Positions 3 to 43,200 of a stretch of DNA of 64,000 nt are shown here, piece by piece. Where the stretch lies: positions 195,913 to 259,912 of the forward strand of contig OY760142.1 of NCBI GenBank assembly GCA_963663225.1, in the 5' to 3' direction. Source of the DNA: Nitrospirota bacterium. Its GTDB lineage: Bacteria; Nitrospirota; UBA9217. How positions within the stretch are numbered: position 1 is the first letter of the stretch; each line of letters begins with the position of its first letter. Position numbers and translations under genes: made by a program. Under the pieces are notes generated by a model. The model searched no databases and was not told where the DNA came from. It saw only the letters and a program-made list of their open reading frames with translations.

Positions 3-1040
3 TTAAGTGCTGTTTTTATCGACCAACTCGTACAAATCAAGGATTTTCCGTGCATTCGATTTCCAGTTAAACTCGCGCTCTGCATACGCACGGGCTTTCT
101 CTCCCATGTCTTGTATATCCATGGAGAACAGTCGGTCAATTGCTTTTCTGAGTTCCTGAGTGTCCTTCGTCGGCACAAGGATGCCGGTATCGGAATTTAT
201 GATATCTTTTATTCCACCAATAGCGGTGCTGATCACGGGTTTTGAGAATGCATAAGCGAGCGGGATTACACCTGACGTGGTGATATCGGTATACGGAAGC
301 ACAACAATATCACAGGCATTGAAATAGTACTGTATTTCATCGTTGCCAATCCACTTGGCGAAAAGACGCAGCTGGGGCATGGTTTTCGCGTGCTCAGTAA
401 GCATTTTGCATACATTCGCATCTTGCAGTTTGCCAGCAACGATGACGATTGTGTTTTTTCTATCTTTTACGGCATCAAGCAGATATTCATATCCCCTGTT
501 TTCCCGTATAAAGCCAAAGCATAGTATCACGTTGATGTTCTCAGGTATCTTTAAGAAAGCACGGGCCTCTTGCTTCGTGACAGTATTTGGATATGACTCA
601 TTAAAATTGCCGTGAGGAATAACAATATGAGCTTTTTTTGTTTTTGTATCAAACGTATCTTCTGCGCGTTCGATATCATGTCGGCTGTGGAATATGATCG
701 CGTCAGACTTTTCATAAAACCATGCTGAAGATAATTTATCTCGTTCCGTATAACCATGCGGAAGAATATTATGCATTTCCCAGATGATTTTTATTCCGAG
801 GAGCTTGCAGAGATAATAAAAACCCTTCATGATGAAGCTGAATGGGAAAATATACAACCAATGGACATGGATGATTCTATAATCTTGCAGCCTGAAATAA
901 AGCATTTTAATAAGATTCGTGAAGGAGGAATAATGAAAGGGCTTTAAAACAACGACCTGCACACCTTCAGCTTCAAGATGATGCTTCAATTGGTTGATAT
1001 ATTCGTGATTTTTGGGAATGATAAAAATGTTTTTTTTCAT
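3..1040 (-). CDS. glycosyltransferase family 4 (GT-B fold)
   Basis: ORF 3..1163. Start placed at internal ATG (MKKNIFIIPKNHEY) 13 nt downstream of the preceding gene's stop; stop codon at 3-5. C-terminal GT4-like region (VLPYTDITTSGVIPLAYAFSKPVISTAIGGI). Confidence 0.8.
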   Translation of the reverse strand: MKKNIFIIPKNHEYINQLKHHLEAEGVQVVVLKPFHYSSFTNLIKMLYFRLQDYRIIHVHWLYIFPFSFIMKGFYYLCKLLGIKIIWEMHNILPHGYTERDKLSSAWFYEKSDAIIFHSRHDIERAEDTFDTKTKKAHIVIPHGNFNESYPNTVTKQEARAFLKIPENINVILCFGFIRENRGYEYLLDAVKDRKNTIVIVAGKLQDANVCKMLTEHAKTMPQLRLFAKWIGNDEIQYYFNACDIVVLPYTDITTSGVIPLAYAFSKPVISTAIGGIKDIINSDTGILVPTKDTQELRKAIDRLFSMDIQDMGEKARAYAEREFNWKSNARKILDLYELVDKNST

Positions 1041-1053
1041 TTGTTTTCCGGAA

Positions 1054-1848
1054 TCATGCTCTATATTTAAAAAACGCGGACCAGATGCGATAGTACAGTT
1101 TGCTTCCCAGTGCTTTTTTAGCAACTGCCTTCGCGCTATACACAAGTTTTTCCTTTGCAGCATAGGAGGAATCGGCGCCTACAATCTGCCGAAAGCAGCT
1201 TATCGGCATGGATCGTGTGATTACGAACCGGTTAAAAACGGTACTGCTTCCAGTACTTGTTGTTTTATTCAAACCAGGGCAGGATGTTGCCACTCCTTTA
1301 TAGCCGGCCTCCTGCGCCGCACGTAAAACGTTCCGGGAGCAAAACCCGCCTGGCAGAGAAATAAAATCAACAGGCAGAGAAAGTTCTTTTTGCAGCTGTT
1401 GCTTGGATTCCTGCAATTCATGCATCAAAGCTTTTTTGTCAAGGTCTGAAAGAAATACATGATTAAAGCTATGGGACTGAATCGACATGTTTTCTTTGGC
1501 CATTTCCCTGAGATGCGTCCAATCAACATAACCGGGGGAACCAACCCGACTTACCGTAATAAAGAAGGTTGCTTTCATACCATATCGTTTCAGAATTGGA
1601 AGGGCTGCTGCATAGTCGCTGTAATTGCCGTCATCAAAAGAAATGATGACGTACTTCCCATTTTGATCAAGCAACCGGCTATCCAGCAAGTTTCCTAAAT
1701 CAGCGCTGGAAAATCCATTCTTCGATAGATATTGAATATGCTGTTCAAAAATGTCAGTAGAAATAGCATAATTTTCCGTATTATCAGTTCCCTCAAACAG
1801 CGCATGATAAAGGAGTACAGGCACACGTAAAGTATTATTCGTCGGCAT
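1054..1848 (-). CDS. polysaccharide deacetylase (NodB-homology domain)
   Basis: 264 aa ORF with NodB motif VIISFDDGNYSDY and downstream His-containing motifs (SHSFNHVFL). Confidence 0.8.
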   Translation of the reverse strand: MPTNNTLRVPVLLYHALFEGTDNTENYAISTDIFEQHIQYLSKNGFSSADLGNLLDSRLLDQNGKYVIISFDDGNYSDYAAALPILKRYGMKATFFITVSRVGSPGYVDWTHLREMAKENMSIQSHSFNHVFLSDLDKKALMHELQESKQQLQKELSLPVDFISLPGGFCSRNVLRAAQEAGYKGVATSCPGLNKTTSTGSSTVFNRFVITRSMPISCFRQIVGADSSYAAKEKLVYSAKAVAKKALGSKLYYRIWSAFFKYRA

Positions 1849-1851
1849 GTT

Positions 1852-3003
1852 CTATACCATTACTTCCTTGTAAAGCGCAAGGTACCGGGCAGACATACGG
1901 TCAGACGAATAGTTTGCCCGGACTGTTTCATATCCACCTTCAGCATAACGTCTTCGCTTGCCGTCATCTGCAAGCAGTGAAGAAAGTGCATCTTCCAGCC
2001 CCTGAACATCTCCAGGAGCAACAAGAATGCCGTTTTCTTCCTGGATGATATTCGGAATAGCACCTACGCTCGTGGCTATGACCGGCTTCTGCGCCGCCAT
2101 GGCTTCCAGTAATACCATGGGAAGCCCTTCTTTAATTGAAGGAAGGACGAATATATCCATAATGGACAGGAGTTCCGGGATGTCCGTCCGGAAACCGGTG
2201 AAAATTACATTTTTATTCAAGCCGTACTGCTCAGTTTCCTGCTTCAAAAAATCGAGAAGAGGGCCTTCTCCCACGATAAGCATCTTGACAGCTCTGCCGG
2301 AGGCAAAAATATTTCTGGCGGCCTGCAAAAGATACGTATGTCCTTTTTCCACACCGAGATTCCCTATAGTGCCGACCACGAGCTCATTGAGCGAAATCCC
2401 CAGTTCACGTTTAAGTTTTTCCACCGGATGATGGTTCTGAAATCTTGTCAGATCAATCCCATTGTCTATAACACTGATCTTTTCCGCCGGTACGCCTGAA
2501 TTCAACATGTCACTTCTTACACCTTCCGATACGGCGACAATTTTATTAAAAAAACGAATCAGCAGACTGTCAATCCGTCGGTATATGCGTAGTTTCCAGT
2601 GAGACGTAAGCCAGTTATGGTTTGTCGCTACGAGCGGCATGCCTTTTTTTCTGGCCAGCAAGGCATAGAAATTTGACTTATATCCGTGGCAATGAATGAT
2701 ATCAATGTCTTTTTCGCGGACAAATGTCCGTATCGCTTCAACCGCTTTGCTGTCGAATTTTGCCTTGCATGAAAAAACAACCGCAGCAATAGAATTTTTT
2801 CCGGCTTCCTCCACGACTTCCTTGTGGGGATTATAGGTATTCATGATGACGCCGATAACAGGTTCGCACCGTTGCCGCTTCAGACTGCTGCATAGTTCGA
2901 TCGCAACCCGTTCTGCTCCATACAGTCCTCTGCTGCTGATCAAGTGCAAAACTTTCAGGGGTCGCGCAGTATTTGCTGGGTGAGAGGATGTCAACTCTTG
3001 CAC
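1852..3003 (-). CDS. glycosyltransferase family 4
   Basis: 383 aa ORF; C-terminal GT4 signature FVLPSIKEGLPMVLLEAMAAQKPVIATSVGAIP. Confidence 0.8.
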   Translation of the reverse strand: MQELTSSHPANTARPLKVLHLISSRGLYGAERVAIELCSSLKRQRCEPVIGVIMNTYNPHKEVVEEAGKNSIAAVVFSCKAKFDSKAVEAIRTFVREKDIDIIHCHGYKSNFYALLARKKGMPLVATNHNWLTSHWKLRIYRRIDSLLIRFFNKIVAVSEGVRSDMLNSGVPAEKISVIDNGIDLTRFQNHHPVEKLKRELGISLNELVVGTIGNLGVEKGHTYLLQAARNIFASGRAVKMLIVGEGPLLDFLKQETEQYGLNKNVIFTGFRTDIPELLSIMDIFVLPSIKEGLPMVLLEAMAAQKPVIATSVGAIPNIIQEENGILVAPGDVQGLEDALSSLLADDGKRRRYAEGGYETVRANYSSDRMSARYLALYKEVMV

Positions 3004-3648
3004 GTATCATCTCCGCACTTTTTGGCATTTGGCATAATGTCCTGTTTTTGCGCAGGGGCCAAAATCCGGTAGAAAGTCAGAAAAATTAGTTTCATATCAT
3101 AGAAAAATGAACGATGCAGTATGTATTCCTTTGCCATCCGCATTTTTTCCGGGAGAAGCACGGTCAGATAAAAATGTTCCGGGTTGTCCTGTCCTTTCAG
3201 AACGCTTTCTTCATCCCTGAATGTCAGAGATGAAATATCCGTAATGCCCGGGCGCACGCTCAGAATGGTTTCATATTCCTGTTTGTAATACTCGACGTAT
3301 TTCTTTACTTCCGGCCGTGGTCCCACTATGCTCATATCGCCTGTTACAACATTGATAAGCTGCGGCAGTTCATCAATTTTTGTTTTTCTCAATATCCGTC
3401 CAATCGCAGTAACACGTGCGTCGCCGCCCGCAGTAATCTGCAATCCGCTTTTCTGAGCATCACGCACCATGGTCCTGAATTTGTAAATAAAAAACGGTTT
3501 GAACCTCCGGCCCATCCGTTCCTGTTTGAAGAAAACAGGACCATCGCTGCCGAATCTGACTAGAAAAGCGACGACGATAAAGAGCGGCAATAGGACCAGA
3601 AGTCCGATCAAAGCACTGAAAAAATCAAAAAGGCGTTTTATCATCATA
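2991..3648 (-). CDS. polyprenyl-phosphate sugar-1-phosphate transferase (bacterial sugar transferase, short WbaP/PglC type); likely priming transferase
   Basis: N-terminal TM helix, then KIDELPQLINVVTGDMSIVGPRP and SVRPGITD motifs typical of bacterial sugar transferases. Start placed at the tandem ATG pair (MMIKRLFDFF). Confidence 0.75.
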
Positions 3649-3689
3649 GCATGTAAGCATAAATAGCGGTGCGGCGCGTGCACGCGTCG

Positions 3690-4913
3690 TTACTTCTTAT
3701 AGAGCGTGATAATTTCCGTGACAGTCCGAATCACCCGGTCGATATCACTCTCGGTCATTTTCGGATAGATTGGCAGGGAGATTATCCTCTTGTAGGTTTC
3801 GAATGCCACAGGATACTGTTCAGGTTTGTATCCGAAGGTATCCCGGTAATACGGATGGATATGCAACGGAATAAAGTGAACGGAGGTCCCGATTCCCCGC
3901 TGCCTCAGTTCCTCGATGAATCGGTTCCGGTCGATGTTTAGGGTCTCCAGATTCAGTTTGAGCACATACAGATGCCAGCCGTGCTTATATTGCTGGGCAC
4001 CACCCGTTAACTCCGAAGAATTGCTCCCGTCCATCTCCGGAAGTTCAACTGCCGAAAGCTTCGAAAATGCCTGGCTGTATCTTTCGGCGATATATTTTCT
4101 CCGCTTCCATAATTCATCGGCTTTTTTCAGCTGAACAATGCCCAGAGCAGCCGCTGTATCCGTGAGATTGTACTTATAACCCGGCGCTATAATTTCATAA
4201 TACCAGCTTCCTTCCGCCGTATATCTTTTCCAGGCATCCTTGCTGATTCCGTGCAGGCTCATAATCCTCATCCGATCGGCCCACTCGTCGTTGTTCGTTG
4301 TTATCATTCCGCCTTCACCGGTAGAAATATTTTTTGTTGCGTAAAAGCTAAAGCAGGTAATGTCGCCGATTGTTCCGATAATGTCCTTGCCATATACTGC
4401 AGGAAATGCATGCGCCGCATCCTCAATGACCATCAACCCGAATTTTCTGGCGATGGCCATGATCGCCTCCATGGCACAGGGACGACCGGCGTAATGAACG
4501 GGAATGATGGCTTTCGGCAGAGCAGAGCCGCGCTCAGCGCATGAAGACAGATACGCTTCTATGCCGGCGGGGGCAATGTTCATCGTCACCGGGTCAATAT
4601 CAACAAAAACCGGTACTGCTTTGAAGTAACGGATCACTTCGGCGGTGGCAGCAAACGTCATGGGGGTTGTAAGAACCGAATCGCCCTCCTTGATGCCGAT
4701 GGCCTCCAGCGCGAGGTGAAGGGCGGCTGTGCATGAGTTTACCGCGATAGCGTGCTTGCATCCGATGTATTTTGCGAAATCGCTTTCAAATTGTTTTGTA
4801 CGAGGACCGGTTGTTATCCACCCGCTTTTAAGGGTATCTACAACAGCCTGAATTTCCTCGTCTCCGATCAACGGAAGTGAGAAAGGAAGAAAATCATTTT
4901 TATTTGCACTCAT
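3690..4913 (-). CDS. DegT/DnrJ/EryC1/StrS-family PLP-dependent sugar aminotransferase
   Basis: Start at internal ATG (MSANKNDF) preceded by AAGGAG RBS. Family-typical N-terminal region LPLIGDEEIQAVVDTLKSGWITTGP and overall length about 407 aa. Confidence 0.85.
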   Translation of the reverse strand: MSANKNDFLPFSLPLIGDEEIQAVVDTLKSGWITTGPRTKQFESDFAKYIGCKHAIAVNSCTAALHLALEAIGIKEGDSVLTTPMTFAATAEVIRYFKAVPVFVDIDPVTMNIAPAGIEAYLSSCAERGSALPKAIIPVHYAGRPCAMEAIMAIARKFGLMVIEDAAHAFPAVYGKDIIGTIGDITCFSFYATKNISTGEGGMITTNNDEWADRMRIMSLHGISKDAWKRYTAEGSWYYEIIAPGYKYNLTDTAAALGIVQLKKADELWKRRKYIAERYSQAFSKLSAVELPEMDGSNSSELTGGAQQYKHGWHLYVLKLNLETLNIDRNRFIEELRQRGIGTSVHFIPLHIHPYYRDTFGYKPEQYPVAFETYKRIISLPIYPKMTESDIDRVIRTVTEIITLYKK

Positions 4914-4930
4914 CTGACGCTCCTTAACAG

Positions 4931-5710
4931 TTATCTGAATTTTCTGCCGCGGCTCAGGAAACGCTTCACATCTTCCCTGTCCGGCCAACCGTAGTAATTT
5001 CCCTTAGTCATATCGAGCGAACGGGTTGCAACATCGTTCCTGACAATTTTTTCTATGCCTTCAAGCACCATTTCCGCACCAATCTGTTTGGAATGCCGGA
5101 TAAAGGAATCCAGGGTGTCATGCTCACGGATTAGGAATTGCCTCTGGACCAGCACATCGCCCGCGTCGATTTTTTCGTTTACAAAAAACAGCGTGCTCCC
5201 CGCTTCCTTTTCGCCATTTGCAAGGACCCAAAACGACGGCATTACGCCCCGGTAATCAGGCAGCAGCGAACCGTGAAGGTTCAGGCAGCCTTTCGGTGCC
5301 AGCTGGATCAAGTCCTTTTTAAATATCTGCGGACATGATATGGATACGATAAGCTCCGTGTCCCAATCTTTTAAGAGTTGCCGGGTCTCCGGGCTGTTTA
5401 CATCAAGAGCCTGCACATAAGGAATACCGTACGCCGCCAGCACCGACTTAAGCGAATAATATTTTCCTGTTTTGCCGCCAAAACGATCCATCACCTTGTG
5501 TGACAGAACCTGAACGGAAAGCATCCCGGCTTCCCAGAAACCGAACGTTTTTGCATAGCGCAACGCAAGCCCCAGCGTTGTTGTTTTTTTGTAAAGCGGC
5601 GGAACAACGATAACTTTAACCTCATGCCGGCCTTTCAGATTTTCAAGAACAAACTGGTAGAATTCCGGCAAATACAGCGGTTCATCCGGCGTTAAAAAAA
5701 CAATGCGCAT
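4931..5710 (-). CDS. formyltransferase (Fmt/ArnA N-terminal-domain-like)
   Basis: 259 aa ORF with formyl-transferase core LNLHGSLLPDYRGVMPSFWVLANGEKEAGSTLFFVNEKIDAGDVL. Confidence 0.7.
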   Translation of the reverse strand: MRIVFLTPDEPLYLPEFYQFVLENLKGRHEVKVIVVPPLYKKTTTLGLALRYAKTFGFWEAGMLSVQVLSHKVMDRFGGKTGKYYSLKSVLAAYGIPYVQALDVNSPETRQLLKDWDTELIVSISCPQIFKKDLIQLAPKGCLNLHGSLLPDYRGVMPSFWVLANGEKEAGSTLFFVNEKIDAGDVLVQRQFLIREHDTLDSFIRHSKQIGAEMVLEGIEKIVRNDVATRSLDMTKGNYYGWPDREDVKRFLSRGRKFR

Positions 5711-5711
5711 G

Positions 5712-6572
5712 CTATATTCCTGCCTTTTCGCGGTGTTTTTGCAAAATGTCCGTTATTGTCCCGAACCTGCTCAACTGCAGAAGTCCGGCCACTTTTTCCT
5801 CAAATCCGGCACGTCCGATTCCCTGATGCAGTCTGCGAGTGACGGGAACATGCTTCATCATCTCTTGCCATTCCAGCGGGTTAAATTCATACGGATGGCA
5901 GTAAATAACAAAGGGCATATTTTCTTCTTCAATCCGTTTCAGACATCGCTTCAAAAACCAGGCCGGAAACAAACGAAAATATCCGCCTCCTCCTATCGGG
6001 ATACGAAGACCTGCGGGCCGCTTCAACTGGAGGACAGTGACCGGCAGTTCTTCCAGAGGTCCTTCCGGAGTCTCAATCCTGCTGTATCCCCGTGCAAAAC
6101 CTTCTATGCCGTAGCGAGGGGTTTTTAAAGGGAAAATGGACGAATCAAATTTAATACCGCACTCAACCATGACATCAAACGCCCAGAAGTTATCCTTGTC
6201 GATAGAAAAATCAGGAGCACGGAATCCGGTTACCGGTTTTCCGATAATGTCTTCAATCAGTTTGCCTGTCTCCGTTAATTCCTGTTTAAATGCTTTCGGC
6301 GTAAGACTGTAGACCGGTCGATGAGAATACCCGTGCGACTGGACTTCATGGCCGTTCGTACAAATCTCTTTGATCAACTCTGGATACTGTTTCGCAACCA
6401 TCCCCTGGACGAAAAATGTGCCCTTTACATTCAAACGTTCAAGAAAGCCAAGAACATGCCGTGTGTTCCGGACGCAAAGTTCACTGATGGGCGCGTCAAA
6501 GTTGTAAGAAGACTGGTACCAGTCTTCAACATCCACAGAAAAGGCGTGAATACTATTGTTTGCCATATTCAT
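5712..6572 (-). CDS. polysaccharide deacetylase-family protein (DVEDW-type, as in PEP-CTERM-locus deacetylases; possibly a deformylase)
   Basis: 286 aa ORF starting MNMANNSIHAFSVDVEDWYQS, with His-rich catalytic region (HEVQSHGYSHRP). Assignment to the PEP-CTERM-locus subfamily is from recalled motifs only. Confidence 0.7.
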   Translation of the reverse strand: MNMANNSIHAFSVDVEDWYQSSYNFDAPISELCVRNTRHVLGFLERLNVKGTFFVQGMVAKQYPELIKEICTNGHEVQSHGYSHRPVYSLTPKAFKQELTETGKLIEDIIGKPVTGFRAPDFSIDKDNFWAFDVMVECGIKFDSSIFPLKTPRYGIEGFARGYSRIETPEGPLEELPVTVLQLKRPAGLRIPIGGGGYFRLFPAWFLKRCLKRIEEENMPFVIYCHPYEFNPLEWQEMMKHVPVTRRLHQGIGRAGFEEKVAGLLQLSRFGTITDILQKHREKAGI

Positions 6573-7609
6573 TATCTGCTGAGTGATTCGAACCAGCTTG
6601 ATTTGAAATTGAGGAATCGGTTAGCCAACCCAAACAGAAAGCCTGTTCCGAAACCCGTATGAATGCAGAAGATGGAGGCGGCAATGCCGGACCAAAATTT
6701 CATCTCGTGTTTCAGGGCGATTCTCAGGGCTTCCGCTGCAAGTGCAACCAGATAACCGCCTGTGTACAGAAAAAAGCATGCGGCCGCATAGTTGCTGAAC
6801 AGTCCAACACACCCCAGTACGCCGAATCCGGCTACAAGCAGCGCTGGCATGTAATGGCGCCATGAGGCCTGCCGGGGATGCTTTTCCAACACAAATACTT
6901 TCCAATAACCGTATTGCAAAAACTGTTTGAACAGCTGTTTGAACGTTTTTCTAGGAAAATACTGGATCTTGATTCTGCCTGATTGAATGACTTTGCCTCC
7001 ATTCTTTCTCAAACGGAACGATAACTCATCATCCTGATTCCTGATCATGCGTTCGTCATACAAGCCGACTTCAATGAGGCGGCTTTTTTTGAAACAGCCG
7101 CCGTATACCGCATCGGTCTCGCCGATGAAATCTCCCCGATCACGCAAGGCGCCTCCCATGGCTATGGGACTTTTATATGCAAGCGCAATGCTTTGCTGCG
7201 TGTAGGTAACGCCTGCCGGCACCAGCACACCACCGGCATTATCGGCACCGGTCTGCTCCATGAGGCCAATCAGTTCCGTTAAATAGTTTTTCGGATGAAC
7301 GCACCGTACGTCTGCGCGCACAATATATTCCCCCCGAGCCTGCATGATTCCGAGATTCATGCCGTGTGGAACCGTTTTCTGCGGGTTGTCCAGAACGGTC
7401 AGCCCAGGGTATTTAGTCTGAAGCGTTGTATACATATCCCTGGTTCCATCCGTGCTCATGCCGTCAATGACAATAACTTCAAAACCGTCGGCTGGTGCGT
7501 CAAAACCATAAATGTTATCCAGACAGCTTTCAATATGTCCGGCTTCGTTCCTGCAGGGAATCAGGACTGAAGCTTTCAATTTTTGTCCGACGCTGTTTTT
7601 CATGTTCAT
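6572..7609 (-). CDS. glycosyltransferase family 2 with C-terminal transmembrane helices (polyisoprenyl-phosphate glycosyltransferase-like, ArnC/DPM1/GtrB type)
   Basis: 345 aa ORF; N-terminal GT2 region LIPCRNEAGHIE...VIVIDGMSTDGT and about two hydrophobic helices at the C-terminus. Confidence 0.75.
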   Translation of the reverse strand: MNMKNSVGQKLKASVLIPCRNEAGHIESCLDNIYGFDAPADGFEVIVIDGMSTDGTRDMYTTLQTKYPGLTVLDNPQKTVPHGMNLGIMQARGEYIVRADVRCVHPKNYLTELIGLMEQTGADNAGGVLVPAGVTYTQQSIALAYKSPIAMGGALRDRGDFIGETDAVYGGCFKKSRLIEVGLYDERMIRNQDDELSFRLRKNGGKVIQSGRIKIQYFPRKTFKQLFKQFLQYGYWKVFVLEKHPRQASWRHYMPALLVAGFGVLGCVGLFSNYAAACFFLYTGGYLVALAAEALRIALKHEMKFWSGIAASIFCIHTGFGTGFLFGLANRFLNFKSSWFESLSR

Positions 7610-7643
7610 AGCCTGTTCATTCGTCCGTGATACAGCTTGCCGC

Positions 7644-10266: not shown

Positions 10267-10324
10267 ATATTATGCCTGTTGTTTGCCTTGAGCATATAGC
10301 ACCGGTAAATACCGATTGCCGGAA

Positions 10325-15116: not shown

Positions 15117-15127
15117 TTCATGGTATT

Positions 15128-22138: not shown

Positions 22139-22142
22139 CGCT

Positions 22143-32870: not shown

Positions 32871-33142
32871 CAGGCGTTTTGGACCGCAACCGGTCCCGTA
32901 CTTGCTTTTTTGGCGACAAAATCGGCGAGCTTGCCGATGGAATCAAAGTTATCGGGTATTATTTCATCATCGGTTACGGCGAACCCGAATTTCTCTTCGA
33001 CAAAGGACACTAGTTCGAGCACGCCGGTTGAGTCGATAATGCCTTTTTCCAGAAAAGAGACCTCGTCGGTCAGTGTATGGTCATCCTGACCATATAAAAA
33101 GTTTTCTATGACAAAGGCTCTGATTACATCTTTCTGTTGCAT
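32870..33142 (-). CDS. acyl/peptidyl carrier protein (phosphopantetheine-binding), second copy
   Basis: Start at internal ATG (MQQKDVIRAF) with GGGGGAG RBS 7 nt upstream; carrier serine motif GIIDSTGVLELVSF. The longer ORF-track start at 33232 lacks this support. Confidence 0.7.
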   Translation of the reverse strand: MQQKDVIRAFVIENFLYGQDDHTLTDEVSFLEKGIIDSTGVLELVSFVEEKFGFAVTDDEIIPDNFDSIGKLADFVAKKASTGPVAVQNA

Positions 33143-36174: not shown

Positions 36175-37485
36175 TTAAAATATCTGTCTGAATTCGAGAA
36201 TGAACCGATTGTTCGAGTAATTGTTCGCCATAATGTCATACGAATGGCTGTTTGCAAACCGATATTCAAAAGACAGGGTCGCCTTCTCAGATAATTGTTG
36301 GTCAAGTCGAAGTGTTGAAAGAACGATTTTCGTTACGCCGCCGGTAGCGGTTGTATCGTTTACATCCTGATAGCCGGCCCCCAGTGTACCGGTTGTAAGT
36401 GTAGCAAAACGGTATAGTGCCGACCCCTGTACTTGCTGGGTTCTGGACAACCGCTGATTCGACAGAGCGTCACGATATTCATTCCATCCTCCTGAAAGGG
36501 TGACAACGGCCCTCGGCCAGGTATTTGAAATGCTGGCAGTATACTGGTCATCCAGCGTAACAAGACGCACCGGATCCTGAACAACATACCTGCGCGCACC
36601 CAAAGCGAATGTCAGGGTTGATATCCGATGGTTCAGACCTCCGTCCCAGAACCAGTAATCCTTTCTTGGATGATTTTGGTTGGGGTCCGCTTTCGGCTCA
36701 AAATCGAACCAGGTTTTGCCGCCCCGGGCGAAAATATAGGCATTTTCTGCGTACGCATACTGTGGTCCGGCGTATACGTCAACCTGGGTATAATTTGAAA
36801 TGTGGTTGAAATCATGCGTATATCGCGCTCCTGCGGTAAATGTCATGCGTGAAGAAAGATTGATCCCCAGGTCGCCGTATGCAATATGTTCCAGGTGGTT
36901 GACGGTTTCAGCCTGGCTTGCGACGCTGCCGTTGAGGTAGCGAACATCCTGGAAAATGTATCCGAATACAGTCCGCGAGTTCGTAGAGGGTCGGAGAATG
37001 AGATACGGATTAACCGCAAATATGTTTTGATCAACCTGGTTGGCGGTGGGACTCTGCTGCGTGTAATCGATGCTGACGTTTTGAGATACCCTGCTGTAGT
37101 CGTCCCGCACTTCAACATACAGATAGTCCTGAATAAGTTCAGTCCGGTTTCTCAGAAAAAGCAGATGAGAATAGTCGTTCTGGATACGGTGCCGGGTATA
37201 ATAGTAATAGCTGTACGTATAGTTCAGGTCCCAGTCCCAGAAGGAAGTTGTATATTTTAATCGAATTGACGGGGATAGTCTGGTGATAAAGGACTCGATT
37301 TTATTTTCATCGCGTTGCAGAAAAACGTTGTCATTATACTCTTCACTCACCATAATAGAAGGCTCAATCCTGAACACGGCGCCTTCTGTTTCCAGCGCAA
37401 AGCAGGTAAGCATAAAAACAATGGCCGCAGCAACAAGTCCTGATATTCGCAAGGAAGCCCCCCTTCGGGAAAGTATATGGATCAT
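36175..37485 (-). CDS. outer-membrane beta-barrel protein (PEP-CTERM/EPS-locus-associated type)
   Basis: 436 aa ORF; N-terminal signal peptide; alternating-hydrophobic, Tyr/Asn-rich body; C-terminal residues FRQIF ending in Phe, as in OM beta-barrels. Confidence 0.65.
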   Translation of the reverse strand: MIHILSRRGASLRISGLVAAAIVFMLTCFALETEGAVFRIEPSIMVSEEYNDNVFLQRDENKIESFITRLSPSIRLKYTTSFWDWDLNYTYSYYYYTRHRIQNDYSHLLFLRNRTELIQDYLYVEVRDDYSRVSQNVSIDYTQQSPTANQVDQNIFAVNPYLILRPSTNSRTVFGYIFQDVRYLNGSVASQAETVNHLEHIAYGDLGINLSSRMTFTAGARYTHDFNHISNYTQVDVYAGPQYAYAENAYIFARGGKTWFDFEPKADPNQNHPRKDYWFWDGGLNHRISTLTFALGARRYVVQDPVRLVTLDDQYTASISNTWPRAVVTLSGGWNEYRDALSNQRLSRTQQVQGSALYRFATLTTGTLGAGYQDVNDTTATGGVTKIVLSTLRLDQQLSEKATLSFEYRFANSHSYDIMANNYSNNRFILEFRQIF

Positions 37486-38432
37486 TTTTTTCCTGTCCTA
37501 TTCAAAATAGTATCCAGCCAGGTCTTAATCTTTTGAATTGCCGTATTAATCGTTTTTTCCGTCTGATCCATCAGTTTAGCAGCTTTGAGCGCTCCGGCCT
37601 GTTCCACTGCCGAAGAGCGGTCATAGTACGGCATCCCCTGCGATGAAAGATAGTGTGGAACATTATTGAAGACTGTCCCGAATACATGGGTGTCATTCAG
37701 GAGTGCCAGCGCCTGCCCTGCTGATTTCACCGGCGTCCGGCCGGCTTGAACCACGAAAATAGCTCCATCTATGTACTCCTTTAAATACAGGGCTTCAGCG
37801 GTGGTCAGAAGCGGAGAAGAGTCAAAGATAATATACCGGTCACGGTATCGGTATTTCATTTCCCGCACAAGGTCTTTCATTTTTTCGGATGCGAGAAGCT
37901 CGGACGGATTGCTCGGCGGATTGCCGGCAGGCAGCAATACCAGTTTGCCGATTCCCGTTTTGATAAGGATATCGGAAAGCTGCACCTTTGCCTGCAGATA
38001 ATCGCTCAGACCGTACTGCGGGGTTATGCCGAGATAGGTATGAATCGACGGCTGGCGAAGGTCCGTATCGATCAGGAGGACGGTATGATCGATTTCCTGC
38101 GCCATCGTAATAGCCAGATTGATCGCGGTGACTGTTTTCCCTTCTCCCGCAAGTGCGCTGGTAACAAGGAGACTGTTCAGAAAATCTTTTTCCGTGCTTT
38201 TAAAAATTCTTGCCCGCAGCTTTTTGTATTCCTCCGCGGAAGGGGCGGTCGGATCGGTTATGCAAACGATATGTTTATTAACGGCAGTGGGGTCGATTAT
38301 GGATTCTCCCACCTCGAAAACCGGCGTCGAGCTCTGCCGCTCTCGTGCCACACTTATCGTCGATGATGATTCTCTTCCGCCCTGCCTCAACTGCGCAGCT
38401 TTTTCCAATGCTTTCTCTATTCTGCTCATCAC
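37482..38432 (-). CDS. BY-kinase catalytic protein (Wzc C-terminal-domain-like tyrosine autokinase, CpsD type)
   Basis: 316 aa ORF; Walker A SALAGEGKTV, Walker A' VLLIDTDLRQP, Walker B YIIFDSSP; Tyr pair near the C-terminus (PYYDRSS). Confidence 0.8.
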   Translation of the reverse strand: MMSRIEKALEKAAQLRQGGRESSSTISVARERQSSTPVFEVGESIIDPTAVNKHIVCITDPTAPSAEEYKKLRARIFKSTEKDFLNSLLVTSALAGEGKTVTAINLAITMAQEIDHTVLLIDTDLRQPSIHTYLGITPQYGLSDYLQAKVQLSDILIKTGIGKLVLLPAGNPPSNPSELLASEKMKDLVREMKYRYRDRYIIFDSSPLLTTAEALYLKEYIDGAIFVVQAGRTPVKSAGQALALLNDTHVFGTVFNNVPHYLSSQGMPYYDRSSAVEQAGALKAAKLMDQTEKTINTAIQKIKTWLDTILNRTGKK

Positions 38433-38449: not shown

Positions 38450-40012
38450 TTATAGGATCCGTACTCCTAAGATCTGACTAATAACTTCCTCAAGCAAAAC
38501 CAAACCGACAATGCCGAGATAGATGGCAGCGGCTTTATAATATTTTCTGTCGAGCAGCCGCGATGCCGCCCGGTCCTCTTCCGTTTCAATTTGCGGCACA
38601 GTCGCCAAAAGGGGAAGCTTGAGGCCGTTTTCAAGCAAATCTTCATTTTTAAAGGTTGGATCTAAATAATCGAGCGCAACCACCGAAGCAATACCCGCGA
38701 TTATTCCCAAAAACAGTCCAACCAGGATCATTTTTACCCTATTCGGGAAAATTGGTAGATGCGGTTCGACAGGCGGATCCATAATCTTGAAGGTAGAATT
38801 TTGCCCCAGTTCCAGATCTCTTGATACCCTCGCGCTTTCCAACTTGATCAAAAGATCGTCATAAATTCTCTGATAAACAGCTCGATTGCGTTGCAGTTTC
38901 GTCCATTCCTCCTGCTCTTTCGGCATCTTTCTGAGAAGTGACTGCCCCTCCTGCTGCTGTTTCGTCAGTTCTCCCTGGCGCGCGCGCAGTGTCTCAATTT
39001 CCGTCTCGGTCCTGGCCAACTCTTCCCGCAACTGCTGGTAAACCGGATTGACAGCCGCAGTCTCTGTTCCGGCACCTTCATGTCGCTGTGTAGAAGCCAT
39101 TGCAATCTGTTTTTTCAACTCCTCAATTTCATTCTTAACTTTTATTACTTCCGGATAATCCTCGGTATATTTCGTCGTCAAGAGGATGAGTTGATTGTTC
39201 AACTGGCTTAACCGTGCCTGCGGTGATCCTTCTCGGGTAACAAAGGCAACGGTCAGCTCTTTTTCACCCGAAAGCTGTTTTTTGAGGCTTTCCCGTTTCT
39301 TTTCCAGTTCACGAAGTTTGATTTCCGCATCGATTTTTCCGGATTGGAAGGTTTCGATTCTGCTGACTACCGTATTTTCGCTCTGCGGCACCAGCGTCGG
39401 ATGCTGCTCCCTGAACTCCCGTATAAGCTTATCGGAGGCATCAAGTTTCTCCCGGTATTCATTCAATTCTTTTTCGATAAAACTGAATGCTCCGTAAACA
39501 TCCTGCGTCCGGGAGCTTTCGTTTATCGCTATGCATTCGCTGATGTGGGTATTCACCAGGCTGGTCACTTTTTTCGGATCACCGCCGCGATACGCAATTG
39601 AAAAATAGAGGTCAGATGCTGTAGCTCCACCGCTCCGGACGGTAACCGTAAGGCTTTTTCGCATTCCTTCAATCAGGCTTTCGTATTGAGTCGGATTGCT
39701 GATTTTGTCGTCGAGATTGAGCTTTTTAATGACGCGTTCAATAAGGCTTCTGCTGGTTAAAATATTTCTCAGGTTTCTCAGCCGCTCTTCCAGGCTTACC
39801 GTGACACCCACGCCCTGCATCAGGGGGTTGATCAGAGATGTGCCCTGGATGTACACCGTGGCGTTTGCTTCGTATGTCTTGGGCATAAGGAAACCGCCCC
39901 AGGTAAAGACGGATATCACGATAAGCGCCACAGCAATCGCCAGATATCTTCTTTTGTACAGGATGCCGAGATAATACTTAAAATCAATTTTAAAGGCGCC
40001 GTTTTCTTCCAT
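38450..40012 (-). CDS. polysaccharide co-polymerase / chain-length determinant protein (Wzz/GumC-like)
   Basis: 520 aa ORF; TM helix near the N-terminus, long charged coiled-coil periplasmic region, C-terminal TM helix. Confidence 0.75.
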   Translation of the reverse strand: MEENGAFKIDFKYYLGILYKRRYLAIAVALIVISVFTWGGFLMPKTYEANATVYIQGTSLINPLMQGVGVTVSLEERLRNLRNILTSRSLIERVIKKLNLDDKISNPTQYESLIEGMRKSLTVTVRSGGATASDLYFSIAYRGGDPKKVTSLVNTHISECIAINESSRTQDVYGAFSFIEKELNEYREKLDASDKLIREFREQHPTLVPQSENTVVSRIETFQSGKIDAEIKLRELEKKRESLKKQLSGEKELTVAFVTREGSPQARLSQLNNQLILLTTKYTEDYPEVIKVKNEIEELKKQIAMASTQRHEGAGTETAAVNPVYQQLREELARTETEIETLRARQGELTKQQQEGQSLLRKMPKEQEEWTKLQRNRAVYQRIYDDLLIKLESARVSRDLELGQNSTFKIMDPPVEPHLPIFPNRVKMILVGLFLGIIAGIASVVALDYLDPTFKNEDLLENGLKLPLLATVPQIETEEDRAASRLLDRKYYKAAAIYLGIVGLVLLEEVISQILGVRIL

Positions 40013-40021: not shown

Positions 40022-40918
40022 CTAAAACCAGCTTGTCTTGACCGTAACCACATCACCAGGCCGTAAGGTGAAATTTTTGCCTATGTCTCCGTTCATGACA
40101 TCTTTTATTTTTACTTTATGATTCTGAACCGCATCGCCTTCCTTTCGGGAGACAAGAACGTTGTTTTTGCTTGCGAACTCGGTAAAACCTCCCGCAGCCA
40201 GTATAGCGTCAAGAGCCGTCATGCCTTCGCTATAAGGGATAATGCCCGGCGTCCTGACCGCACCGGTCACTCGAATGCGGTTGCTGAACCCTCCTGGGAG
40301 ATAAATGATATCATTCGGTTCAAGCTTTACATCCTGGGAGTAATCGCCTTTTCCCACCAGTTGCTCAAAACTGACGGCAACTTTTTTCCCGGCTCTCAGC
40401 AAATAGGCATTGGGTAAATCAATGTTGCTGACTGATCCCAACTGTGCAAGAAGCTGCAGCAGCGTTGTATTTCTTCTGAGTGTAATCTGTCCGGAAGCTG
40501 CTCCACCGGCTCCGGCAGCGGCGCTGGCTGTTTGTCCGGCTGTGTCTGACAGCAACGCATTTGATCGGGAGACGCCGTCTCCGAAAACATACACTTTAAA
40601 ACTATTAATTGCCGTCACCGTGATGCTGACGACCGGCGCTTTTACATACCGCAGGAGCTCTTTTTCAATGACTTTTTTCAATTCAAGGGGGGTTTTGCCT
40701 TCCGCCTTGATGTCGCCGACAAGAGGCATTGAGACCATTCCATCCGGTCTTACCGGAACATGAACACTCAATTCATTGTTTCCCCATACTGATATCTGCA
40801 GCATGTCTTCCGCACCGATGACGTATCCTTCCGCATGAGCTGTTTTCATGTTCAGAGACAGCAGCGTCATTAAAAAAACCGATAAAACGGCCAAGACCAT
40901 CTTGTACGTTGATCTCAT
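40022..40918 (-). CDS. polysaccharide export protein (Wza-like)
   Basis: Start at internal ATG (MRSTYKMVLAVL) preceded by GGGGGG RBS; signal peptide; Poly_export-like region PVRPDGMVSMPLVGDIKAEGKTPLEL. Confidence 0.75.
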   Translation of the reverse strand: MRSTYKMVLAVLSVFLMTLLSLNMKTAHAEGYVIGAEDMLQISVWGNNELSVHVPVRPDGMVSMPLVGDIKAEGKTPLELKKVIEKELLRYVKAPVVSITVTAINSFKVYVFGDGVSRSNALLSDTAGQTASAAAGAGGAASGQITLRRNTTLLQLLAQLGSVSNIDLPNAYLLRAGKKVAVSFEQLVGKGDYSQDVKLEPNDIIYLPGGFSNRIRVTGAVRTPGIIPYSEGMTALDAILAAGGFTEFASKNNVLVSRKEGDAVQNHKVKIKDVMNGDIGKNFTLRPGDVVTVKTSWF

Positions 40919-41113
40919 AATTTCCCCCCGCAATTTTTTCGCAGAATAGCACCGCATTTTTGCAATGCTCCGCCCTCTCAGTCACAGACACGTGCCGGAG
41001 GGATAAAAAACCATTGTTTACATCCACTTCTTGCACAGCATCAGCTCCAAAAAACATTGTTCCGTGTTTGGTCGCTGATTTTTACGATCGAACGGCGAGC
41101 ATTCAATTGTTTG

Positions 41114-41767
41114 TCAACACAATGATTCTACTTCCTGGGCTGCCACTCGTATGGAAACGCTTCTGCCGAGCAGTTCTACAGTAACCTGGAACAGATATTC
41201 GTTTTCTTTCCGGATCAGAATGCCTTCTGCATTTTTGAGCGGGCCGTTTTTAATCCGGATCCGGGTCCCCTGTTTCAAGTGCGGATAGACATCCAGCTCT
41301 TTGCCGCTCTCGACGAGAAGCCGTAAGGAATCTATCTCTTCGGGAGCAACCGGTGTCGGCTTGCCGGGTTCCAGCGAGATGAAAGTCACAACCCCTCGTG
41401 TCCTCAGCACGTCTAGGAACGCCTCAGGTCCGGGACTAATTTTCACGAAAAGGTATCCTGGAAACAGTGGATATTTGACGATCTTTTTTCTGTCTTTCCA
41501 CTGGCTGACCCGCTTTGCAGCAGGCAGAAATGCTTCCAGATTTTTTTCAGTCAGTTCATCCAGAACAACGAATTCATGCCGCGATTTTACATGAACGGCA
41601 TACCAGCATACCGTCTGCTCTGCCGGCGATTGTCGACTAAAATGAGATTCCGAAAACACTATAGACCGTGCCAGTTCACATTGATTCATGAGTTCCACGT
41701 TTCCTTTTATTTCCGTATTCCCGATTTTCCAGTCCATGCAGGCGACAGGAAAGGACTTACCGATCAC
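41114..41767 (-). CDS. NusG-paralog transcription antiterminator (UpxY/LoaP/RfaH-like)
   Basis: NGN-domain motif CWYAVHVKSRHEFVV...YPLFPGYLFVK and C-terminal KOW-like GTRIRIKNGPLKNAEGIL. True start uncertain; candidate Met codons at 41767, 41737 and 41689. Confidence 0.7.
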   Translation of the reverse strand: MIGKSFPVACMDWKIGNTEIKGNVELMNQCELARSIVFSESHFSRQSPAEQTVCWYAVHVKSRHEFVVLDELTEKNLEAFLPAAKRVSQWKDRKKIVKYPLFPGYLFVKISPGPEAFLDVLRTRGVVTFISLEPGKPTPVAPEEIDSLRLLVESGKELDVYPHLKQGTRIRIKNGPLKNAEGILIRKENEYLFQVTVELLGRSVSIRVAAQEVESLC

Positions 41768-41791
41768 CGTTTAGGCAAAACATGCATAATT

Positions 41792-42688
41792 TTATTCCGG
41801 ATCCTGTATCCCCAGAGCATGAAGAAGAGCGGAATAATCGATACTTTTTCTCACACCCTGATCATGAGAACCCCAATAGAGCGTTTCAAAGTCGAGGTCC
41901 TTTACGATATCCCGGACCATAGCGGGGTCAACCTCTTTCGTTTCTTCAATAAAAGCGGTCAACAGCAGGAAGTCACACATGATGTTTACCAGCCGTGGGA
42001 CTCCCTTTGTGTACTGGTAAATAAGATCAATGCTCCCATCGGAAAACGTTACGGCGTCTCTGTTGCCAGCCACTTCATGACGGTGCAGAATATACTCTAG
42101 CGTCTCTTCTTTTGTCAGCGGGCTGATCCGGCAATTGATGCTGATGCGCTGACGAAGTTGACGCAGCTGCGGTAGGGCAAGAACATCCCTCAGTTCAGGC
42201 TGGCCGACGAGAACAATTTGCAGCAGTTTCGAGGTGCTGGTCTCCAGATTTGACAGCATCCTGATTTCTTCCAGCAGATCAGGCTTTAGGTTCTGCGCCT
42301 CATCAATAATAAGAACCGGATTAAAGCGCCTCGCATGCTGTTCTATCAGAAAATCATTCAGGTCTTTGAACAGCGTGACTTTGTCCTTTCCTTGCACTGC
42401 AAGCCCGAAATCATCATTGATCATAGCGATCAACTGTTCGGAAGTAACTTTTGTGTTAAAAATCTTAGCGAGAGTGACATTGCCTGCCAGTCTTTTAATA
42501 AGATCGCTGATAAGCGTCGTTTTACCTGAGCCGACTTCTCCCGTCAGGAGTATAAAGCCCGCCTTTTCCCGTATTCCATATTGCAGATAGTGAATCGCCC
42601 GTTTATGGGTTCTGCTCATGTACAGGAAATCAGGGTTCGGTATAAGCTCAAACGGTTTTGTTTTAAAATTAAAAAATGCTTCATACAT
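41792..42688 (-). CDS. ExeA-like AAA ATPase (secretion-ATPase type found in PEP-CTERM/EPS loci)
   Basis: 298 aa ORF; Walker A LLTGEVGSGKTTL and Walker B LIIDEAQNL. Confidence 0.75.
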   Translation of the reverse strand: MYEAFFNFKTKPFELIPNPDFLYMSRTHKRAIHYLQYGIREKAGFILLTGEVGSGKTTLISDLIKRLAGNVTLAKIFNTKVTSEQLIAMINDDFGLAVQGKDKVTLFKDLNDFLIEQHARRFNPVLIIDEAQNLKPDLLEEIRMLSNLETSTSKLLQIVLVGQPELRDVLALPQLRQLRQRISINCRISPLTKEETLEYILHRHEVAGNRDAVTFSDGSIDLIYQYTKGVPRLVNIMCDFLLLTAFIEETKEVDPAMVRDIVKDLDFETLYWGSHDQGVRKSIDYSALLHALGIQDPE

Positions 42689-42777
42689 AGAATTGCTGTC
42701 CTTCCTGCACAGGTTTCTAGGGAACCGCTGCCGTAGTGCCTCCTGCCGGTAGCGCTCTAACTAACCTGTTGCCTGCT

Positions 42778-43200
42778 TCATATTTCTACTCTTATTTCCG
42801 GCTTCGCTGCATTGCTGACCAGAGCTGATTCAGCACCGCTTTTACAGTTTTCCATGATTTGATTTACGAGATCCCGGAATTTCGTATAATCAAGCGGCTT
42901 TATCATACAATGCAGCAGTGATTTGTCCACGTTATCGAGCATGATTGCCAAATCTCGGTTCAGCCGGTCAGAAAGGATGATGACCGGAAGTTTTGTTTTA
43001 ACAAGCTCTGCCAGTACGACTGCCCCATATGGATAGCTTGTTATGACGAGACCGAAATCTTCGCAGTTCAGTATTGATGTGATGCTTTGAAGATCGCTGG
43101 TAACAATAGTGGAATACTTTTCTTTTTCCAGTATTGCCGAGCAGATACGTGCAAATCTTGCTTCATCAATTATTAATATCTTCTTTGTTTGGATTTCCAT
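42778..43200 (-). CDS. stand-alone receiver-like domain protein lacking the canonical phospho-acceptor Asp (atypical or pseudo-receiver)
   Basis: 140 aa ORF; beta1 KILIIDEA, conserved Ser/Thr (PVIILSD) and Lys (IKPLD) positions present, but the expected Asp after beta3 is Thr/Ser (GLVITSYP). Confidence 0.55.
   Translation of the reverse strand: MEIQTKKILIIDEARFARICSAILEKEKYSTIVTSDLQSITSILNCEDFGLVITSYPYGAVVLAELVKTKLPVIILSDRLNRDLAIMLDNVDKSLLHCMIKPLDYTKFRDLVNQIMENCKSGAESALVSNAAKPEIRVEI

Follow-up and report, generated by a model that had tools for sequence, protein, structure and literature searches.

A putative 40-gene Wzx/Wzy-dependent exopolysaccharide operon of a Nitrospirota bacterium, probably derived from exosortase W loci, with no exosortase found at the locus

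The large exopolysaccharide (EPS) loci associated with exosortase A (XrtA) and PEP-CTERM proteins (Haft et al. 2006), including the zooglan-type loci of Zoogloea and Aquincola, combine a set of core export proteins with an AsnB-type amidotransferase, a ligase/decarboxylase cassette, deacetylases, and GT4 glycosyltransferases. Aquincola goes on producing exopolysaccharide when its PEP-CTERM protein is not expressed (PMC9850573), so EPS synthesis has no need in principle of the sorting arm, and it is biologically reasonable for such machinery to work on its own. The exosortase loci of Nitrospirota were found here to be of the W type; 'exosortase W' homologues are named by NCBI in metagenome-assembled genomes (MAGs) of Nitrospirota, Methylomirabilota, and Deltaproteobacteria, and no paper on this family was found in the literature searched. 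Two further systems offer comparisons: the Wzx/Wzy-dependent EPS pathway of Myxococcus xanthus with its EpsY/EpsX translocon, class-3 or short OPX proteins being paired with a co-encoded outer-membrane beta-barrel (PMC9601211, PMC9603273), and the very long UpxY- or RfaH-controlled operons (Bacteroides capsule, enterobacterial rfa/cps). The locus described here occupies positions 3-43200 of a 64,000-nucleotide stretch of DNA (the window) from a Nitrospirota bacterium of the lineage UBA9217 (assembly GCA_963663225.1, contig OY760142.1, positions 195,913 to 259,912). It is likely to be a Wzx/Wzy-dependent EPS operon of 40 genes, with one more gene just outside the window, and to derive from the exosortase W type of locus in Nitrospirota, but without the exosortase.

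Families were assigned by NCBIfam and Pfam profile searches with their curated cut-offs, and scores are given here in bits, followed where applicable by the cut-off. All genes of the operon lie on the minus strand and are numbered g01 to g39 from the left end of the window. Five core proteins score above the cut-offs of NCBIfam families that were defined by co-occurrence with exosortase A: the XrtA/PEP-CTERM system-associated ATPase g38 (41792..42688; ExeA-like, Pfam AAA_22; TIGR03015, 399.9 vs. 324.5), the periplasmic class 3 OPX exporter g36 (40022..40912; TIGR03027, 212.5 vs. 180), the polysaccharide co-polymerase or chain-length determinant g35 (38450..40012; Pfam Wzz and GNVR; TIGR03007, 398.5 vs. 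278.9), the BY-type tyrosine autokinase g34, which is the other half of a split Wzc (37482..38429; TIGR03018, 234.2 vs. 230.7), and the outer-membrane protein g33, a putative beta-barrel partner of the exporter (36175..37485; TIGR03016, 141.7 vs. 90.9). The window thus has the core families of the exosortase A loci, as well as their amidotransferase, ligase/decarboxylase cassette, deacetylases, and GT4 enzymes in a large EPS cluster. Unlike those loci, it belongs to a different phylum and has no exosortase, EpsI, PEP-CTERM gene, PrsK, PrsR, PrsT, or above-cut-off TIGR03013 (EpsB_2); TIGR03006, TIGR03108, TIGR03098, TIGR03099, TIGR03097, and TIGR03088 are likewise under cut-off, and TIGR03019 (FemAB) has no match among the GNAT proteins g14-g16 of the window.

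Synteny was examined in a sample of 80 metagenome loci (designated by L numbers), with the amidotransferase as anchor, and in several contigs with pre-computed Pfam domains. The AsnB homologues are named as Nitrospirota or Dissulfurispiraceae; Dissulfurispiraceae fall in the class Thermodesulfovibrionia. The exosortase W loci of Nitrospirota and neighbouring phyla (L009, L019, L016, and L091) have the same OPX exporter, chain-length determinant, BY-kinase, TIGR03016 protein, and TIGR03015 ATPase, often a NusG paralogue, and the same module of AsnB, acyl carrier protein (ACP), ligase, in some cases HemK, and WbuX. The AsnB proteins of the related loci are 69-77% identical to that of the window, with the closest relative beyond genus level, L091, at 77%. 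The gene order in L009 (GCA_016213945.1) is export, GNVR, kinase, outer-membrane protein, ATPase, a fusion of Exosortase_EpsH and EpsI, ligase, AsnB, ACP, and ligase. In L019 and L016 it is ATPase, AsnB, ACP, ligase, (HemK), WbuX, deacetylase, exosortase/EpsI, FemAB, and aminotransferase, and in L091 Bac_transf, epimerase (Epim), AsnB, ACP, double ligase, WbuX-like protein, deacetylase (DUF3473), exosortase/EpsI, and GT2. The exosortases of these relatives are EpsH and EpsI fusions (L009:6905-8452, L019:17277-18932, and L091:9391-10968) that score 579.6 and 465.3 against the exosortase W model NF038142 (cut-off 425) and only 188 and 144 against the XrtA model TIGR03109 (cut-off 208). A protein of at most 109 amino acids with a canonical PEP-CTERM tail (L019:15969-16295, plus strand; TIGR02595, 21.5 vs. 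16) is encoded between WbuX and the deacetylase-exosortase W pair of L019. The gene set had originally been taken as characteristic of exosortase A loci; the five cut-offs and the synteny uphold its place in an exosortase-associated EPS lineage, but the exosortase of its relatives is W, not XrtA.

The window shares with these loci the export core and the series Epim-AsnB-ACP-ligase-HemK-WbuX (29.4-42.7 kb). It differs in what comes next. In the exosortase W loci, a TIGR03006 deacetylase and the exosortase W/EpsI fusion, usually with a TIGR03019 protein and in one locus with the PEP-CTERM protein, follow right after WbuX, whereas the window and the close relatives L001 and L002 do not have this block. 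In its stead, WbuX is followed in the window by about 22 kb of genes for acyl/aminoacyl decoration, glycosyltransferases, Wzx, and Wzy. The ATPase also differs: it is 298-313 amino acids long and placed at the operon start in the window and in L012, but 388-402 amino acids long in L009, L019, L018, and L092, its gene there coming after that of the kinase or the outer-membrane protein; the extra part, about 100 amino acids when the window is compared with the exosortase W loci, is C-terminal.

The shared module begins with the NAD-dependent, TviC-like sugar epimerase g32 (35180..36145; best NCBIfam match TviC, 239, under cut-off), whose adjacency to AsnB is common to L012, L091, and L093. It continues with the AsnB-type glutamine amidotransferase g31 (33252..35192; TIGR01536, 516.5, which passes; TIGR03108, 484 vs. 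816.9), the acyl or peptidyl carrier protein g30 (32870..33142; PP-binding and ACP-like NF052616, 57), whose length of 90 amino acids was set from called orthologues, the AMP-forming ligase g29 (31320..32870; best match TIGR03098, 492.4 vs. 592.4), and the HemK/PrmC-family methyltransferase g28 (30433..31305; TIGR03534, 208 vs. 199.1), which is kept within the module in L018, L019, and L093. The last gene common to the exosortase W loci encodes the WbuX-like PP-loop N-acetyl-sugar amidotransferase g27 (29424..30494; TIGR03573, 151.2 vs. 203.2). Near the AsnB module in some of the related loci are large secreted proteins with no counterpart in the window, namely a 1097-amino acid repeat lipoprotein adjoining the module (L012:15867-19157, plus strand) and giant Malectin/beta-helix proteins of 675-1277 amino acids (L007:778-9693 and 17185-21018).

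Not all of the cut-offs for exosortase-associated families discriminate in this phylum. In the exosortase W-bearing L019, the AsnB orthologue (489.5, TIGR03108) and the ligase orthologue (501.9, TIGR03098) fall short of the cut-offs just as those of the window do; the low amidotransferase and ligase scores are therefore a phylum effect, and these two cut-offs do not discriminate here. In contrast, TIGR03006 is passed by the deacetylases of L019 (402) and L012 (394), and TIGR03019 by the FemAB protein of L019 (391.6). The TIGR03006 candidate of the window, g07, scores 228.1 vs. 276.2 and shares only 35-42% identity with the relatives' true TIGR03006 orthologues, so it was rejected as an XrtA-system deacetylase. 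Both g07 and the FemAB-like GNATs are generic paralogues, different from the proteins of exosortase loci. Among the proteins that the original prediction had linked to PEP-CTERM loci, the ATPase and the presumed beta-barrel thus pass their family models, the deacetylase is generic, and the amidotransferase stays under cut-off in the same way as its L019 orthologue.

The exosortase-less layout is shared by close relatives, which are MAGs labelled uncultured Nitrospiraceae or Nitrospirota. Two overlap parts of the window, L002 being 93% identical over window positions 1-11045 and L001 97% identical over 31784-52681. A second species is represented by L003 and L093 of the MAG CAZYEF01, with the left-end genes of L003 at 77% nucleotide identity. 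L093 has the order outer-membrane protein, Epim, AsnB, ACP, ligase, HemK, WbuX, hexapeptide acyltransferase, GH123, hexapeptide acyltransferase, GDSL, ACP, and ligase. All compared genes are full length. The ratio of nonsynonymous to synonymous substitution rates (dN/dS) is 0.03-0.17 in the 31 window-relative comparisons with usable estimates, except for two with L001 at very low divergence (0.27 and 0.63); two comparisons with L093 gave no estimate, as dS was not computable. Because dN/dS is low and dS against L093 is about 0.8-1.4, the exosortase-less layout is not degenerate, but old, functional, and under purifying selection in the second species.

No exosortase was found in the window by any of several approaches, as the original prediction had stated from the sequence. 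None of the annotated window proteins has a PF09721 or TIGR02602-type match, tblastn with the exosortase of a relative found nothing in the window, L001, or L002, and a hidden Markov model (HMM) built from six related exosortases detected neither an exosortase nor a remnant of one in the open frames of 80 codons or more, taken from all six frames of the window, or in L001 and L002. The only polytopic membrane proteins of the cluster are Wzx and Wzy. A PEP-CTERM motif scan of all window frames found no tail, while the same scan recovers the tails in L019 and L035, and at most two members matched when the TIGR02595 HMM was applied to 89 C-terminal tails together with two positive controls; the negative result for PEP-CTERM tails in the window rests on these at most two matching members, with both positive controls included, and on the motif scans. 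The regulators PrsK, PrsR, and PrsT were not found in the window. The sigma-54 regulator g45 and the kinase g46 were considered as PrsR and PrsK, but were rejected as generic NtrC-type and histidine-kinase matches under cut-off: g45 scores 275.6 against a TIGR02915 cut-off of 502.6, and the kinase has no PrsK match.

The left flank was read in L002 as a stand-in for the source genome, and the view to the right ends at 64 kb. The cluster had been expected to continue past coordinate 1, where an exosortase might lie. It does continue in L002, by one more gene for a 658-amino acid membrane-anchored PglF/WbpM-like UDP-GlcNAc 4,6-dehydratase, after which the operon ends; beyond are a convergent gene for an 846-amino acid beta-helix protein, a CRP-family regulator, manC, and a phosphomannomutase, and no exosortase is present in the 10 kb left of the window edge.

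The alternative that survives best sees in the locus the EPS arm of a complete exosortase/PEP-CTERM system, with the exosortase (W or A) and its substrates elsewhere in the 3.26-Mb genome, and its chance falls only just short of even. It draws on the five core proteins, on the exosortase W in the homologous locus of the closest relatives beyond genus level, on AsnB and ligase scores equal to those of orthologues in exosortase-bearing loci, and on the limited span that was read, about -10 kb to +64 kb. Within those roughly 74 kb (the window and 10 kb to its left in L002) there is no exosortase, its usual neighbours TIGR03006 and TIGR03019 are likewise missing, and the window has neither a PEP-CTERM tail nor the Prs regulators. 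As a genome-wide proxy, a protein database was searched with the exosortase W of L091, which gave 261 clusters at E <= 1e-20, the best 120 reaching down to 34% identity. None of these 120 clusters has as its representative a protein from this lineage's contigs (3,255,001, 146,438, 107,463, 119,955, and 85,407 bp), while several AsnB-bearing contigs of the relatives do appear among the representatives (37,329, 23,606, 11,181, 379,792, 195,630, and 247,275 bp). Twenty clusters were opened, 10 of them chosen as most similar next to the query's own and 10 from those with at least three members, and in this partial coverage no member came from the 3,255,001-bp source genome. This partial negative reduces, without abolishing, the chance that an exosortase W lies elsewhere, and it has little bearing on other exosortase types.

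The window has the complete set needed for Wzx/Wzy-dependent synthesis, with a priming phosphoglycosyl transferase, Wzx, a Wzy_C protein as the putative polymerase, a polysaccharide co-polymerase with BY-kinase, and an OPX protein. The unbroken series of 39 minus-strand open reading frames of at least 100 amino acids is joined by a 90-amino acid carrier protein gene (24948..25220), below the threshold of that list, which brings the total to 40. This gene fills an apparent 332-nucleotide hole at 24951-25283, and so an internal promoter or leader at that place was rejected. When best-guess start codons are used, 35 of the 39 junctions are 60 nucleotides or less, 14 of them are overlaps, and the widest gap is the 201 nucleotides between the genes for the NusG paralogue and the exporter, so the earlier description of 40 consecutive and tightly spaced minus-strand genes was borne out.

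The first gene of the series, g39, encodes a 140-amino acid receiver-like protein (42778..43200; Pfam Response_reg, 19.2 vs. 30.2) that, by eye, has Thr at the position expected for the acceptor Asp and is probably a pseudo-receiver; L001, L012, and L022 also have it where the operon starts. The third gene, g37, encodes a NusG paralogue of the UpxY family of transcription antiterminators (41114..41737; NF033644, 127.6 vs. 100), and such paralogues recur among the related loci. Like the UpxY/RfaH-controlled operons, this very long polysaccharide operon has a NusG paralogue, one that passes the UpxY cut-off, encoded near its 5' end; unlike in those, it is the third gene and not the first here, and its function in Nitrospirota is putative. 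No cis recruitment element for the paralogue was identified in the window, with an empty Rfam scan and a loose ops-like string only. This string, GGGCGGAGCATTG, is loosely like the enterobacterial ops element and lies in the 201-nucleotide gap at 40913-41113 (minus strand).

The exporter g36 (296 amino acids) has the Pfam domains Poly_export, SLBB, and SLBB_2 only, with no Wza_C, and matches the EpsY model NF041843 at 105.7. Since it has no Wza_C and pairing with a co-encoded beta-barrel is known for class-3 OPX proteins, g33, with its signal peptide and C-terminal Phe, is proposed as the obvious candidate for its partner. As in M. xanthus, a short OPX protein without Wza_C would serve a putative Wzx/Wzy-dependent EPS pathway, and an outer-membrane protein gene lies beside the co-polymerase and kinase genes; g33, however, is assigned by family to TIGR03016 and not to EpsX, and both its barrel fold and its interaction with g36 are putative.

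The genes between WbuX and the left end, in the order of transcription, begin with the hexapeptide-repeat acyltransferase g26 (28749..29378; NeuD/PglB/VioB family, 71.6), the 694-amino acid secreted GH123-like glycoside hydrolase g25 (26616..28700; weak Pfam GH123_N, with GH123_cat in the L093 orthologue), which has a single hydrophobic segment at residues 1-22, a second hexapeptide acyltransferase, g24 (25990..26589; same family, 64.8), and the secreted GDSL esterase or acylhydrolase g23 (25283..25993; Pfam Lipase_GDSL_2, 37 vs. 32.9). After the second carrier protein, already described (PP-binding, 26.6 vs. 20.8; orthologue in L093), come the AMP-forming ligase g22 (23296..24951; best match TIGR03098, 345.2 vs. 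592.4), the pyridoxal phosphate (PLP)-dependent decarboxylase g21 of the diaminopimelate-decarboxylase fold (22143..23354; best match TIGR03099, 353.4 vs. 478.5), and the amino-acid adenylation-type, DltA-like enzyme g20 (20510..22285; TIGR01733, 275.2 vs. 317.4; DltA-like models, about 216). These are followed by the 365-amino acid g19 of unassigned family (19362..20459; no NCBIfam match, weak GNAT-fold NMT_C at 19.5), a third hexapeptide acyltransferase, g18 (18634..19332; NeuD/PglB/VioB family, 55), the GT4 glycosyltransferase g17 (17455..18609; best match TIGR03088, 171.9 vs. 409), the three tandem FemAB-like GNATs (Acetyltransf_6) g14, g15, and g16 (13989..17414; PF13480, 87.6, 81.2, and 64.2), the GT2 glycosyltransferase g13 (12920..13996; GT2-family NCBIfam matches), and the polysaccharide deacetylase g12 (11841..12878; Polysacc_deac_1, 88.1). 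The membrane steps are represented by the Wzx-type MOP flippase g11 (10325..11785; Polysacc_synt, 85.7, and Polysacc_synt_3, 70.5; about 12-14 hydrophobic segments) and the Wzy_C-domain protein g10, a polymerase or ligase (8896..10266; Wzy_C, 67.2 vs. 31.7; about 9-10 transmembrane segments).

Beyond these are the secreted right-handed beta-helix protein g09, which is lyase- or epimerase-like (7644..8945; Pfam Beta_helix, with a C-terminal choice-of-anchor Q domain), the GT2 glycosyltransferase g08 (6572..7609; GT2-family NCBIfam matches), the deacetylase paralogue g07 with Polysacc_deac_1 and DUF3473 (5712..6572), the formyltransferase-fold N-acyl or formyl transferase g06 (4931..5710; Formyl_trans_N, 89; ArnA/Fmt-like NCBIfam matches), and the DegT/PseC/ArnB-type sugar aminotransferase g05 (3690..4988; TIGR03588, 392 vs. 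423.5). The priming enzyme g04 is a small PglC-like polyprenyl-phosphate sugar-phosphate transferase of 230 amino acids (2991..3683; Bac_transf, 197.5), which matches TIGR03025 with its C-terminal catalytic domain only (220.9 vs. 295.6) and TIGR03013 at 157.6 vs. 393. The series ends with the GT4 glycosyltransferase g03 (1852..3003; best match TIGR03088, 160 vs. 409), the polysaccharide deacetylase g02 (1054..1848; PgaB/PdaB-type NCBIfam matches), and the GT4 glycosyltransferase g01 (3..1040; GT4 NCBIfam matches), the last gene within the window.

Every function named in the original prediction was recovered by the NCBIfam and Pfam searches: the priming transferase, two GT2 and three GT4 enzymes, Wzx, the Wzy_C protein, the split Wzc, the Poly_export/SLBB exporter, the TIGR03016 outer-membrane protein, the TIGR03015 ATPase, the AsnB-type amidotransferase, three Acetyltransf_6 GNATs, three deacetylases, three adenylating ligases, two carrier proteins, and the PLP decarboxylase. 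The searches added the UpxY-family NusG paralogue, the receiver-like first gene, the TviC-like epimerase, the HemK-family methyltransferase, the WbuX-like amidotransferase, the three hexapeptide acyltransferases, the GDSL esterase, the GH123-like hydrolase, the beta-helix protein, the formyltransferase-fold enzyme, and the PseC/ArnB-like aminotransferase.

From this gene content a pathway can be proposed. The PglF-like dehydratase, the PseC/ArnB-like aminotransferase, and the formyltransferase-fold enzyme would make a 4-amino-4,6-dideoxy-HexNAc derivative, the small PglC-like transferase would load that sugar onto the lipid carrier, and five glycosyltransferases would extend the repeat unit. 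The TviC-like epimerase and the AsnB-type enzyme may yield a hexosaminuronamide, by analogy with the WbpS/WbtH-type amidotransferases. Three adenylating ligases, two carrier proteins, the decarboxylase, and three FemAB-like GNATs would attach acyl or aminoacyl groups, with further decoration by the WbuX-like amidotransferase, three hexapeptide acyltransferases, three deacetylases, and the methyltransferase. Wzx would flip the unit and the Wzy_C protein polymerise it, while trimming of the polymer in the periplasm might fall to the secreted proteins of the GH123-like, beta-helix, GDSL, and deacetylase types. The split Wzc would hand the polymer to the periplasm-only class-3 OPX protein, which probably forms a composite translocon together with the TIGR03016 barrel, and the UpxY-type NusG paralogue near the 5' end probably sustains RNA polymerase through the 43 kb. 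In evolutionary terms, the locus would be derived from the exosortase W type, with the export/ATPase core and AsnB-ACP-ligase-HemK-WbuX kept and the exosortase block lost. The polysaccharide machine would be expected to work without an exosortase in the locus.

The assignment of g10 is central to a different explanation, that the left part is a general protein O-glycosylation pathway or a lipopolysaccharide (LPS) O-antigen pathway in which a lipid-linked glycan, begun on a bacillosamine-like sugar, is transferred to proteins or to lipid A-core by g10 as an O-oligosaccharyltransferase or WaaL-type ligase. The best NCBIfam match of g10 is indeed TIGR03097, 'putative O-glycosylation ligase, exosortase A system-associated', the Wzy_C domain is common to WaaL- and PglL-type ligases, and a PglF/PglE/PglC-like initiating set is present. 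However, the score of 70 is far under the TIGR03097 cut-off of 188, and the operon has a full set for high-molecular-weight export (PCP-2a-type co-polymerase, BY-kinase, OPX protein, and outer-membrane protein), which O-antigen and O-glycan pathways do not use. That g10 is the only Wzy_C-type protein of the cluster also counts in favour, but as a ligase it would leave the pathway without a polymerase. This explanation is unlikely, and g10 is better read as a Wzy-type polymerase.

The GC content of the operon is uneven. Nine genes at 10325-20459 (Wzx, a deacetylase, a GT2 enzyme, three GNATs, a GT4 enzyme, a hexapeptide acyltransferase, and the protein of unassigned family) have a GC content of 0.375-0.44, while most other operon genes are at 0.45-0.50. 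A GC drop of this kind is typical of a horizontally exchanged serotype-like core, and the low-GC stretch suggests such a variable core here. Two or more independent co-directional clusters, one combining the export/regulation core and the AsnB module (about 29.4-43.2 kb) and the others being separate clusters for glycan or acyl decoration (about 0-29.4 kb), would fit the mosaic origin suggested by the GC fall at 10.3-20.5 kb, the far shorter gene sets after WbuX in L012 and L091, and the AsnB module apart from any export core in L007, but are very unlikely, with neither half functional alone (no priming transferase, glycosyltransferases, flippase, or polymerase on the right, no export machinery on the left), junctions of at most 62 nucleotides across the proposed boundaries, a count of terminator-like sites at 24.5-44 kb, taken over the whole stretch and not per gene junction, that is near the shuffle expectation (29 vs. 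20.6 +/- 4.9), and the joined gene order kept in the second species.

Several points weigh against the reading of the locus as an exosortase-less EPS operon of the exosortase W lineage. An exosortase may be present elsewhere in the source genome, and the loss of the block, as opposed to its never having been present, is suggested by synteny and not by a rooted phylogeny. Several enzymes are best-match assignments under the curated cut-offs. A UDP-GlcNAc 6-dehydrogenase that would feed the uronamide branch is absent from the cluster. For the putative beta-barrel g33, the single-sequence AlphaFold2 model has a pLDDT of 32 and is unreliable, and a profile search of Protein Data Bank sequences found no relative. 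Transcription of all 40 genes as a single operon is what their arrangement suggests, and antitermination by the NusG paralogue is plausible from its family. On balance, the locus is homologous to, and works like, the EPS arm of exosortase-type loci, and it misses their defining features, as far as these are testable, because no exosortase, PEP-CTERM cargo, Prs regulators, TIGR03006, or TIGR03019 protein was found at the locus.

The operon is separated by an AT-rich, 414-nucleotide intergenic leader or promoter region, recognised by sequence inspection (43201..43614, minus strand), from the divergent glmS (43615..45528, plus strand; TIGR01135, 819 vs. 418), which lies outside the operon and is predicted to act in amino-sugar precursor supply. 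A sigma-54 promoter upstream of the operon was dropped: the -24/-12-like site at 43216-43231 belongs to a motif class no more frequent than chance, with 24 sites of up to two mismatches in the window against 32.8 expected in shuffles. The best -24/-12 match of the window, TGGCATGTTCCTTGCT with one mismatch, is intergenic at 53365-53380 (minus strand), upstream of a malic-enzyme gene and flanked on the other side by a gene for a sigma-54-dependent response regulator. Neither an Rfam match nor a tRNA was found in the window. Further to the right, a 1183-amino acid fusion of ferredoxin, GltD-like flavoprotein, and molybdopterin domains, as taken from the L001 orthologues, adjoins NuoF-like and NuoE-like genes (45698-51601, minus strand), and the group resembles a module of the formate dehydrogenase or hydrogenase type that is linked to NAD(P)H. 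At 57395-59952 (plus strand), a 225-amino acid open reading frame of unknown function, a 272-amino acid HNH-domain protein (PADLOC type IV restriction-like, 36), and a 248-amino acid S-adenosylmethionine (SAM) methyltransferase (PADLOC mad2, 60) may be a small restriction or defence islet.

Taken as an EPS operon, the locus is an otherwise ordinary, if unusually large and richly decorated, example of the Wzx/Wzy type, and its gene set would not surprise a specialist. Its interest lies in the matched comparison that it offers within one phylum, between the same core and module with the exosortase W block and without it, the latter in at least two species. To our knowledge, it has never been established what the proteins annotated as 'XrtA/PEP-CTERM system-associated' do in relation to the exosortase. 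It is a tentative proposition, to be given rather less than an even chance, that this lineage has no exosortase or PEP-CTERM proteins genome-wide, yet keeps the five core proteins and the AsnB module under purifying selection. If true, this would be a natural uncoupling, in which TIGR03015, TIGR03016, and the other core families are components of polysaccharide assembly and export and not parts of protein sorting, and in which the conserved AsnB module modifies the glycan and not the PEP-CTERM cargo. If the genome has no exosortase, these families could be reassigned to polysaccharide export and modification, and automatic 'PEP-CTERM system' annotations would be misleading there.

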